Shown piece after piece: positions 4,935-26,530 of a DNA stretch of 64,000 nt (positions are counted from its first letter, which is position 1; each line of letters opens with the position of its first letter). Made by a program: the position numbers and the translations under genes. This stretch comes from Escherichia phage AugustSocin, in the sequence record MZ501052. The stretch is one strand, 5' to 3'. Under the pieces are notes generated by a model, which saw only the letters and a program-made list of their open reading frames with translations, made no database searches and had not been told where the DNA came from.

Positions 4935-6259
4935 TTGATTTCCTCTAAATCTTTGGTGTATTCTGTAACTACATCAGTAGTTTTCCAATATTCGTTTTCT
5001 TCTTTTTTAGCTTTAGCTTCTTCAGCAAGTTTCTTTGCTTCATCAGAAGTCATATGAAAAATATTCATTCCAACCAGTTTATCAACATAAGAAGAATACA
5101 TATCAATTTTAGAAAGTTCTTCGGTCAGTTCTTTGCGAGTTTTACCTTGCACAACAATTTCACCTGAAATTACTTTCTTAATGAAATGCGCCTTGGCAAA
5201 GGCTAAACGAAAAGCTGACTCAGTTTCTTTGATTTTGTTATCAATTCGTTTTTGGACATAAGTTTTACGAACTTCAACAAAGTCTTTAATTAAATCAACT
5301 ACGTTATCGTAAACTTGTAGTTTTCCTTTCTCATTAATAACCGTAATATTCTGAGAACGACGCTCAATCAACCCGAAGTCTTTCATAATTTTTGCGTGGC
5401 GTTCTTCTTCATTATCGCTCAAAGAATATTCTTTACGGAATTTAACTTTAAAGCCAAAACCATGCTCACCACAAGCATCATCCCATGTAATGAAGCCTTT
5501 ATCTTCAAGTGGGTCTAAGATTTTACTCACATAAGTTTCACGATCATACTTATACGGAATCTCAGTGATATGCATTTGAGTTCGTGAAGTAAACTTATAT
5601 GTTCCACGAATTTCATATTGCCCATCAATTTCAACGATTTCACCACGAAATTCTGGGAATTCTACCTTCGGTTTAGTTACTTTCTTTCCTTGAAGAGCTT
5701 GTAATACAGCTTTCTTGACAGAAGACACGCTATGAGGAAGAATGTAAGTTGCATAACCAGTTGCAATACCGGAAACACCATTAAGAAGAACAGTAGGAAT
5801 AATAGGCAAATAGAAAGCAGGCGGAATGTGTTCTTTATCTTGATGTACCGGAGCATATTCAGTATCTTTATATACGTTATAGAAATTTTTACTTACACGA
5901 GCAAAAATATAACGACTTGCCGCTGCTTTTTGAACGGTACGAGAACCAAAGTTTCCTTGACCATCTAACAGAGGAAAGTTATTGTTCCAAGTATTCGCCA
6001 TCAAAGCACCTGCATCTTGTGCAGAGTTTTCGCCATGATGATATCCAAGGTCCGCTACACCACCTGCAATAGAAGCGAGTTTGTGAAACTTATCTTTATT
6101 TCCTCGTGCCAAATCAAGAGCTCGAGCAATAACAAATCGTTGAACTGGCTTAAATCCATCAATCATATTTGGAATAGCACGATTTTCAACCGTGTACATA
6201 GCATAAGCCAATGCTTCATTATCAATGATACTTTTTAAATCGCGATTATTCAGTTGCAT
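4931..6259 (-). CDS. 52: DNA topoisomerase II medium subunit gp52
   Basis: 442-aa ORF; size and sequence match recalled T4 gp52. Confidence 0.92.
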   Translation of the reverse strand: MQLNNRDLKSIIDNEALAYAMYTVENRAIPNMIDGFKPVQRFVIARALDLARGNKDKFHKLASIAGGVADLGYHHGENSAQDAGALMANTWNNNFPLLDGQGNFGSRTVQKAAASRYIFARVSKNFYNVYKDTEYAPVHQDKEHIPPAFYLPIIPTVLLNGVSGIATGYATYILPHSVSSVKKAVLQALQGKKVTKPKVEFPEFRGEIVEIDGQYEIRGTYKFTSRTQMHITEIPYKYDRETYVSKILDPLEDKGFITWDDACGEHGFGFKVKFRKEYSLSDNEEERHAKIMKDFGLIERRSQNITVINEKGKLQVYDNVVDLIKDFVEVRKTYVQKRIDNKIKETESAFRLAFAKAHFIKKVISGEIVVQGKTRKELTEELSKIDMYSSYVDKLVGMNIFHMTSDEAKKLAEEAKAKKEENEYWKTTDVVTEYTKDLEEIK

Positions 6260-15575: not shown

Positions 15576-16001
15576 TTATTCCTTAAAATGTGCTTTCAAC
15601 ATCTGATACAAGGACCATGCATGTTCATTATTTTCAATAGTAACTTTCATGACCGGGAATTCTGTGAAATCTTCTATTTGTTCTTGCTCTTTCTCTTCCT
15701 GCTCTTGCTCTTCGGCTGCCTGGTATGGATTTTCCACTTCATCAAAGAACACAGCTTCGCTCGTTGAAAGCCAGATAAAATCTTCATCCAAAATATCTTT
15801 ACCAGAAGATAACGCCAATTTTCCACTAGATGTCACAAGTTTAGTAGGACGACCAAGATAGTCAATATCTGTAACTCTAAAAGGTTCCATACCAAGACGA
15901 CGTGCATAAATTCCGTTTTCAGTATGGTCCTTGATAAAATCTTCTTGAGCTTGTTTATTTTTAAATTGATACCATTTATTAACTTCAAATTTAATAGCCA
16001 T
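15576..16001 (-). CDS. hypothetical acidic protein (141 aa)
   Basis: ORF-track ORF; goF/cef region by position only. Confidence 0.5.
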
Positions 16002-25464: not shown

Positions 25465-25482
25465 CCGGTAAAATGAAAAAAA

Positions 25483-25500
25483 GGACTCCCTAGGGAGTCC
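25483..25500 (-). terminator. intrinsic terminator downstream of soc
   Basis: GGACTCCC-TA-GGGAGTCC hairpin followed by TTTTTTTCATTTT on the minus strand. Confidence 0.6.
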
Positions 25501-25511
25501 TTGAATTATTA

Positions 25512-25681
25512 ACCACCTATTTCTGTAGGCGTAAACATTGCAGCATTCTTAGTTTTCCAAGTTGCTGCATCGGAAACTACATCAGAATAAGCTGCTACCA
25601 CCTATTTCTGTAGGCGTAAACATTGCAGCATTCTTAGTTTTCCAAGTTGCTGCATCGGAAACTACATCAGAATAAGCTGCT
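25512..25681. repeat. perfect 85-bp tandem direct duplication (2 copies) spanning the soc 3' end
   Basis: 25512..25596 and 25597..25681 identical on base-by-base comparison. Confidence 0.85.
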
Positions 25682-25861: not shown

Positions 25862-25869
25862 TATTTATA
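25862..25869 (-). promoter_or_regulatory. late promoter (TATAAATA) for soc
   Basis: plus-strand tatttata is the reverse complement of TATAAATA, about 30 nt upstream of the soc ATG. Confidence 0.6.
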
Positions 25870-26011
25870 ACTTACAATTTAGCGGCTTTCCAGAGTTGTT
25901 CAATAATCTCTTGGTCTATTTCTTTAGTTATTTCATTACGTAATAAAGCAGTAAGGGCTTTCGCCCTTTTCTTATTCAACTTTTTGAGTTGACGTTTATT
26001 TAAACGAGACA

Positions 26012-26530
26012 TTAATAACCTCGGTCCTGACGAGCAAAGTTCTCGGCATTTTTCAGATAATAAAGTTTAAAGATTTCTTCTGCTGTAAGACCAAGACCTT
26101 GGAACATGTTCAGAACGAAATGGAGAATATCAATCATTTCAAACTTAATTTCCAGTTGGTCTTGTGGAGACAAATCAGTAATCAGAGTTTCACGACGTTC
26201 ACCATGCTGCGACTTCCAAGGTTTCCATACAGCAGATGCGTCTTTTTCACCATTACTCATACCACCAAGAGAAGTTAGAAGTTCACGGAATTCATCGTCA
26301 ATATAATCTTTCTGATTACGCAACCAATCAACAACTTCACCGGCAGTAGCCAAATCATCAGGATGACGATTATATTCAGGTTTATCTTTAGCTAAACGAA
26401 TCTGCAGAGATTTCTGCATGTCAAGCATTACCTGCAGCGGGTCTTTTTCATCACCGAGAATATCCCAATATTCATTTTGAGCTTTATCAACACCTTCGAT
26501 CAAATGAGCACATTCATTAAAGTGAGCCAT
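26012..26530 (-). CDS. 56: dCTP pyrophosphatase gp56
   Basis: about 171 aa from MAHFNECAHLIEG; AAGGAAA RBS; MazG-like; the track ORF has a 31-codon spurious extension. Confidence 0.88.
   Translation of the reverse strand: MAHFNECAHLIEGVDKAQNEYWDILGDEKDPLQVMLDMQKSLQIRLAKDKPEYNRHPDDLATAGEVVDWLRNQKDYIDDEFRELLTSLGGMSNGEKDASAVWKPWKSQHGERRETLITDLSPQDQLEIKFEMIDILHFVLNMFQGLGLTAEEIFKLYYLKNAENFARQDRGY

Follow-up and report, generated by a model that had tools for sequence, protein, structure and literature searches.

A perfect 85-bp tandem repeat at the 3′ end of soc in the genome record of Escherichia phage AugustSocin: finishing artefact or very recent neutral duplication

The small outer capsid protein Soc binds between the gp23 hexamers on the expanded capsid and is represented, e.g., by the RB69-type protein (PF16855; 3IG9/3IGE). 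Engineered C-terminal fusions of Soc, made for T4 display, place extra residues on the exposed C-terminus of the protein, and capsid binding is tolerant of them (PMC3012670).

Short repeats can be compared with two further known phenomena. Short tandem duplications that arise spontaneously in bacteria and T4-type phages, through slipped mispairing or illegitimate recombination, are arranged head-to-tail, measure tens of base pairs, shift the reading frame, and are expected to revert by recombination; their endpoints typically have a direct repeat of a few base pairs. The other phenomenon is the untrimmed end-overlap, an assembly artefact recognizable as a perfect two-copy repeat with a homology-free joint at an arbitrary site, below read length and private to one record. 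The Phage Annotation Guide cautions that contigs may exceed 100% of the genome, that such redundancies may become internal, and that these faults are common (PMC8785237).

Escherichia phage AugustSocin (Bas38 of the BASEL collection), a sewage isolate from Lenzerheide, is represented by the record MZ501052 (167,411 bp, 86x coverage); its DSMZ stock has the number DSM 112916. The stretch analyzed here, referred to as the window, comprises 64,000 nucleotides of this record. It harbors an open reading frame whose product is, on the grounds of sequence, the small outer capsid protein Soc (PF16855): the Pfam profile matches with 68 bits vs. a cut-off of 27 (E = 1e-18), and residues 1–78 align end to end with residues 1–78 of RB69 Soc 3IG9 (E = 1.1e-41). 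The gene is situated between gene 56 (dCTPase) and mrh.2 and is accompanied by late-promoter and terminator elements, as judged from the wV7 annotation and the neighbors in 20 loci; the gene 56–mrh.2 setting is another likeness to the RB69-type Soc. In contrast to the latter, the AugustSocin protein possesses four extra C-terminal residues, SSLF, representing out-of-frame soc sequence. An exact look-up retrieved the same 82-aa sequence as QXV76352.1 of AugustSocin, “small outer capsid protein”. The elements of the locus, in the order in which the minus strand is read, are as follows:

25862..25869, minus strand: late-promoter motif TATAAATA, upstream of the soc Shine–Dalgarno sequence and ATG; conserved in wV7 and DBKEOH010000011
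25582..25830, minus strand: soc coding sequence as deposited, 82 aa, with the new stop TGA at 25582-25584 (ORF translation)
25597..25681, minus strand: copy read first, comprising the third base of the Lys50 codon and the codons Ala51–Gly78, i.e., the native Soc C-terminus (Tandem Repeats Finder, ORF translation, alignment to wV7 and DBKEOH010000011)
25596..25597, no strand: novel junction, ...AAGCTGCT followed by ACCACCTA..., with 0 bp of microhomology (sequence)
25512..25596, minus strand: second copy; translation continues into it in the +1 frame, the initial 12 nt (25585-25596) giving SSLF, and the rest is an untranslated 3′ extension (not present in wV7 or any of the other loci)
25509..25511, minus strand: ancestral soc stop TAA, 70 nt further downstream than the new stop, adjoining the left edge of the unit, 6 nt before the hairpin
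25474..25502, minus strand: terminator-like hairpin AAGGACTCC-CTAG-GGAGTCCTT with a T-run; the hairpin occupies 25481-25502 and has a 9-bp stem (terminator scan)

The original prediction, made from the letters of the window, placed two identical copies at 25512-25596 and 25597-25681, and this turned out to be correct to the letter in a string comparison. Tandem Repeats Finder describes the head-to-tail array at 25512-25681 by a period of 85, 2.0 copies, 100% matches, 0 indels, and a score of 340. A chance origin of 85 consecutive matches is excluded (odds of ca. 4^-85 by our own estimate). No other long tandem repeat is present in the 64-kb window. Short imperfect tandem repeats are located at 5011-5050 and 15681-15722 (periods of 21 and 15/21 bp, 80–88% identity). 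The soc repeat is not extendable in either direction (25511 a vs. 25596 t; 25682 t vs. 25597 a). Given these mismatches at either flank, the unit is exactly 85 bp long, and the new joint lacks microhomology.

The coding consequences likewise agree with the prediction that the Soc C-terminus is encoded by the copy which the minus strand presents first and that, 85 not being a multiple of three, translation runs out of frame into the second copy, adds SSLF, and stops (TGA, 25582-25584). As 85 nt correspond to 28 codons plus 1 nt, a ribosome that has passed Gly78 continues into the second copy in the +1 frame, where it meets the codons AGC AGC TTA TTC TGA (25585-25596 and the stop). The resulting protein, MGGFVNIK...AAMFTPTEIGGSSLF, ends with TEIGG followed by SSLF; its C-terminal peptide would have the form NAAMFTPTEIGGSSLF or, without SSLF, NAAMFTPTEIGG. 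No conserved extension or slippery signal indicative of programmed recoding (frameshift or readthrough) was found at the end of soc, the homologues ending with GG or GE followed by a stop; the duplication explains the SSLF tail entirely. A leftover 30-aa ORF starting with GTG (25509-25601), for which no convincing ribosome-binding site was found, was treated as non-coding.

Without the second copy, the gene would end TEIGG-TAA just before the terminator hairpin, as also anticipated earlier; this is evident from the sequence and from wV7, where precisely such an arrangement is present. The duplication leaves the soc terminator hairpin intact, and the RNA fold retains it, displaying otherwise only duplicated local hairpins. 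No Rfam or tRNA matches were detected in the window. The T-run past the terminator (25474-25480), ca. 30 bp from the duplication, consists of 7 T in the window and of 6 T in wV7 and DBKEOH010000011. Upstream of the gene, TATAAATA is taken to be the T4-type late-promoter consensus, an identification based on established T4 knowledge.

The interval between gene 56 and soc (window 25872-26012; loci L008-L027) represents a variable cassette: it contains a 46-aa ORF in the window and in wV7, and 66- and 57-aa ORFs, a 224-aa ORF (L027:1446-2120), or nothing in other relatives. Inside the 46-aa ORF, a palindromic terminator-like hairpin, AAGGGC-TTTC-GCCCTT, is present at 25953-25968 on both strands. 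In several relatives, a Dam-like methyltransferase (PF02086) is encoded upstream of gene 56. The homing endonuclease SegF of T4 presumably acts in the gene 56–soc region.

The structure of the joint bears on the origin of the second copy. Duplications generated by slippage or via microhomology are characterized by a short direct repeat common to both endpoints; at the soc joint, this repeat amounts to 0 bp, and neither microhomology nor templating repeats were found at the endpoints of the unit. The nearest shared hexamer, TTTCTG, was discarded as a templating repeat because its spacing gives a unit of 78 bp, not 85. In this respect, the AugustSocin repeat differs from typical spontaneous short tandem duplications, although it shares with them the head-to-tail arrangement, the length of tens of base pairs, the frameshift, and the expected reversion by recombination. 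The lack of microhomology, unusual for duplications of the slippage type, is expected at ca. 56% of arbitrary joints (our own estimate); it thus supports the view that the second copy arose during finishing of the record and argues against a genuine duplication.

The position of the unit is peculiar in another respect: its left edge (25512) adjoins the soc stop (25509-25511) to the base, leaving the last sense codon in and the stop codon out. This is regarded as a post hoc coincidence, with a probability of roughly 1% under random placement by our own estimate, and no mechanism explains the match. The exact fit to the last sense codon, at ca. 1% under random-position models, speaks for a slip of hand-editing or merging during curation, e.g., a copy-paste error or the merge of a Sanger contig anchored on the soc annotation, unrelated to the point of circular closure; for the collection, the authors do describe refining assemblies by hand in Geneious and patching them by Sanger sequencing (PMC8594841). 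However, the annotation of a coding sequence normally includes the stop codon, so such an anchor would not coincide with the annotation boundary; furthermore, nothing else indicates editing, and the coincidence was noticed only after the fact. Overall, a slip of this kind is considered improbable.

Comparison with related phages reveals that the duplication is private to the AugustSocin record. Its closest relatives compared are Tequatrovirus phages, e.g., wV7 and T4_ev151, with 95–98% identity; wV7 has one copy of the unit and a 78-aa Soc in an otherwise identical context. A total of 22 related soc loci was considered, comprising wV7, DBKEOH010000011, and 20 further loci with soc genes of 78–85 aa. 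In all 22, gene spacing is normal and soc is free of long tandem repeats; direct counting of the 85-mer gave at most one copy in 12 of the 12 loci so tested (wV7, DBKEOH010000011, and ten others). Searches with the junction itself gave a concordant picture: a 40-nt query, which cannot seed on single-copy DNA, returned 0 matches in 50,697 phage records; every match of an 80-nt query to phage records consisted of two pieces overlaying a single 85-bp stretch; and the 35-nt junction was not found in viral, genome, and metagenome contig collections. By exact look-up, the un-duplicated 78-aa Soc (JLBYU22 and others) is present on ca. 99 contigs and the 82-aa form on one.

The soc nucleotide allele of the window was encountered, in a single copy, in DBKEOH010000011 (99.6% over 274 bp). 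This TPA contig (DBKEOH010000011.1; 163,502 bp) is that of a T4-like phage and belongs to the “Escherichia coli” assembly GCA_052600215.1. The sole difference of its soc (L002:5001-5165) from the window allele is one extra C (GAACCACC vs. GAACACC), leading to a frameshifted product of 54 aa which ends with KSSLF and points to a sequencing error or, alternatively, to a pseudogene of soc. P0046 (54 aa, ending ...KSSLF) was considered as a second instance of the AugustSocin tail and rejected: it stems from a single-copy soc in which a 1-nt insertion shifts translation into that same alternative frame.

The C-termini of the 21 intact Soc homologues from these loci are GG or GE, and none bears a tail resembling SSLF. 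Among 46 clusters of Soc homologues, the sequences read (P0001-P0004 and P0030) also end with Gly; P0030, the sole other 82-aa Soc in the 46 clusters, has a Gly run at its end and not an SSLF tail.

These comparisons are relevant to the suggestion that the duplication is both real and adaptive, i.e., that SSLF alters the capsid surface, or the longer 3′ UTR alters the fate of the soc mRNA, and that the change was kept by selection. The intactness of the protein and the surface-exposed position of its C-terminus are in line with this suggestion, but the duplication is confined to one record, the un-duplicated allele being widespread, none of the 21 intact homologues has a comparable tail, the 82-aa P0030 of the 46 clusters ends with its Gly run, and the perfect identity of the copies means that there was no time for selection to show. 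An adaptive origin is, therefore, very unlikely. Specifically, a homology-independent join retained for the advantage of a hydrophobic SSLF on up to ca. 870 Soc per capsid, or of the longer 3′ UTR, is hardly to be expected; if true, it would be a case of a natural decoration protein gaining a C-terminal tail by out-of-frame self-duplication.

The choice offered by the original prediction between a very recent event and an assembly artefact stands, narrowed by the uniqueness of the repeat to one record and by the circular assembly and re-linearization of the genome. In the BASEL workflow, Illumina NextSeq 550 reads were fed to the Geneious assembler, which “usually” gave circular contigs easily or automatically; these were then linearized at the small-terminase gene (PMC8594841). 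The authors also refined the assemblies manually in Geneious and settled ambiguities by PCR and Sanger sequencing (PMC8594841). In the BASEL paper, there is no mention of soc or of any duplication.

We favor the reading in which the second 85-bp copy is a finishing artefact of MZ501052, not present in virion DNA, over a real neutral duplication, and give it about an even chance of being correct. According to this scenario, a circularly permuted genome of the T4 type would yield a short-read contig with overlapping ends, so that the linear contig would start and end with the same 85 bp. Circularization with the overlap left untrimmed, followed by re-opening of the circle at the small-terminase gene, would render the overlap internal in the form X-S-S-Y, i.e., as a perfect two-copy tandem at an arbitrary place with a homology-free joint. 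The actual phage would then encode an ordinary 78-aa Soc ending TEIGG-TAA.

The AugustSocin repeat fits the untrimmed end-overlap in many respects: the identity is 100% over exactly 2.0 copies, the joint is homology-free, and the junction is private to one record, absent from close relatives and independent sequences, while the single-copy allele is widespread (ca. 99 contigs for the 78-aa product). The genome is circularly permuted, and its contig was circularized and re-opened elsewhere. The repeat is shorter than a read, NextSeq 550 reads being presumably longer than 85 bp. The documented workflow of circular assembly and re-linearization can yield such repeats (PMC8594841). How the repeat is built, that it is unique, and how the genome was assembled are directly documented; under the artefact reading, we infer that the closure point would have lain at soc and that no reads would support the junction. 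Unlike in the classic form of this artefact, a k-mer-length signature is not applicable, the Geneious assembler being overlap-based; the same consideration led us to drop the idea of a k-mer overlap suggested by 85 being odd, like the k of de Bruijn assemblers.

The finishing artefact also differs from its known counterparts in that no second case was found in the collection. In the other BASEL records scanned, ca. 5.7 genome-equivalents made up of 50-kb portions of large genomes (four in number) and four small genomes in full, no perfect out-of-frame tandem duplication was found. The recurrence in genomes from the same pipeline would be supportive of an artefact and not defining for it; since there is none, the artefact, if it is one, is a one-off and not systematic. 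The large T-even genomes (4 x 50 kb) contained only old hoc domain repeats of 288 bp with 77–79% identity. These are two-copy tandem repeats, found in hoc of AdolfPortmann (L004:13865-14446) and AlbertHofmann (L005:14281-14855), and presumably represent repeated Ig-like domains. In the four small genomes, tandem repeats of 21–96 bp with 73–94% identity were detected, every period being a multiple of three. One of them, an in-frame 2 x 96 bp tandem duplication with 94% identity in the hypothetical-protein gene bas01_0044 of AugustePiccard (MZ501051; L028:36489-36677), looks like a genuine young duplication. Exact direct repeats were also encountered, e.g., of 86 bp in JeanPiccard (L029:32368 and 32679; 311 bp apart) and of 50 and 56 bp in TheodorHerzl (L030:11301/38652 and 11385/38736; 27 kb apart).

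Several of these observations weigh against the finishing artefact and for a genuine duplication. Apart from the lack of any like case in the same-pipeline records, young tandem duplications of 78–96 bp exist in other phage genomes, the 2 x 96 bp repeat of AugustePiccard being an example of similar size. By our own reasoning, reads of ca. 150 nt suffice to assemble a true repeat of 2 x 85 bp, and the depositors annotated the 82-aa protein as such. Local ambiguities were settled by the authors with PCR and Sanger sequencing, and a true tandem repeat is the type of ambiguity they would check (PMC8594841). The duplication preserves the full Soc sequence along with the terminator; an artefact at a random position would spare the whole protein in ca. 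20% of cases (our own estimate).

The competing reading is that the Bas38 stock used for sequencing really carried a tandem duplication, very recent and nearly neutral, generated by homology-independent rejoining or template switching involving the last 85 nt of soc; we consider the chances of this reading appreciable, somewhat short of even. Candidate routes include illegitimate recombination mediated by topoisomerase or ligase and a repair error in the recombination-prone 56–soc region. Nothing would select against such a change: Soc is non-essential, and its C-terminal fusions are without significant effect on capsid binding (PMC3012670), in agreement with the use of the C-terminus for display fusions noted in the original prediction. 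Compared with the engineered fusions, the AugustSocin protein has no foreign insert or linker, its tail being soc read out of frame, and comes from an environmental isolate. With slightly less than even probability, the 3′ UTR of the soc mRNA would thereby have grown by ca. 73 nt upstream of the terminator, itself unchanged, and the copy would later be lost by homologous recombination.

On the other side, the genuine duplication has to be reconciled with its absence from every other sequence collection searched, with the perfect identity of the copies, and with the instability expected in a hyper-recombinogenic phage of the T4 type. Singer et al. (1982, Cell 31:25) are reported to have found that T4 recombination is efficient on homologies of ca. 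50 bp or more, so a real perfect tandem of 85 bp should be unstable. No independent re-sequencing of Bas38 confirming the repeat was found, including in published work using this phage. Exact look-ups of the neighboring 113-aa and 439-aa proteins matched other phages only (at most 96.4% identical where measured), and the 82-aa Soc had no entry in the contig index.

Either way, the repeat is ordinary, an assembly leftover or a very recent neutral mutation, and biologically minor. The practical value of the finding lies in curation, and the understanding of T4 biology is left unchanged by either outcome. If the second copy is an artefact, MZ501052 and QXV76352.1 (82 aa) carry an error, and the true Soc of the widely distributed Bas38 is 78 aa long. 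If it is real, the record captures a very young duplication, unstable and near-neutral, in the gene of a non-essential decoration protein, and natural Soc tolerates a short C-terminal tail, as the display work already implies.
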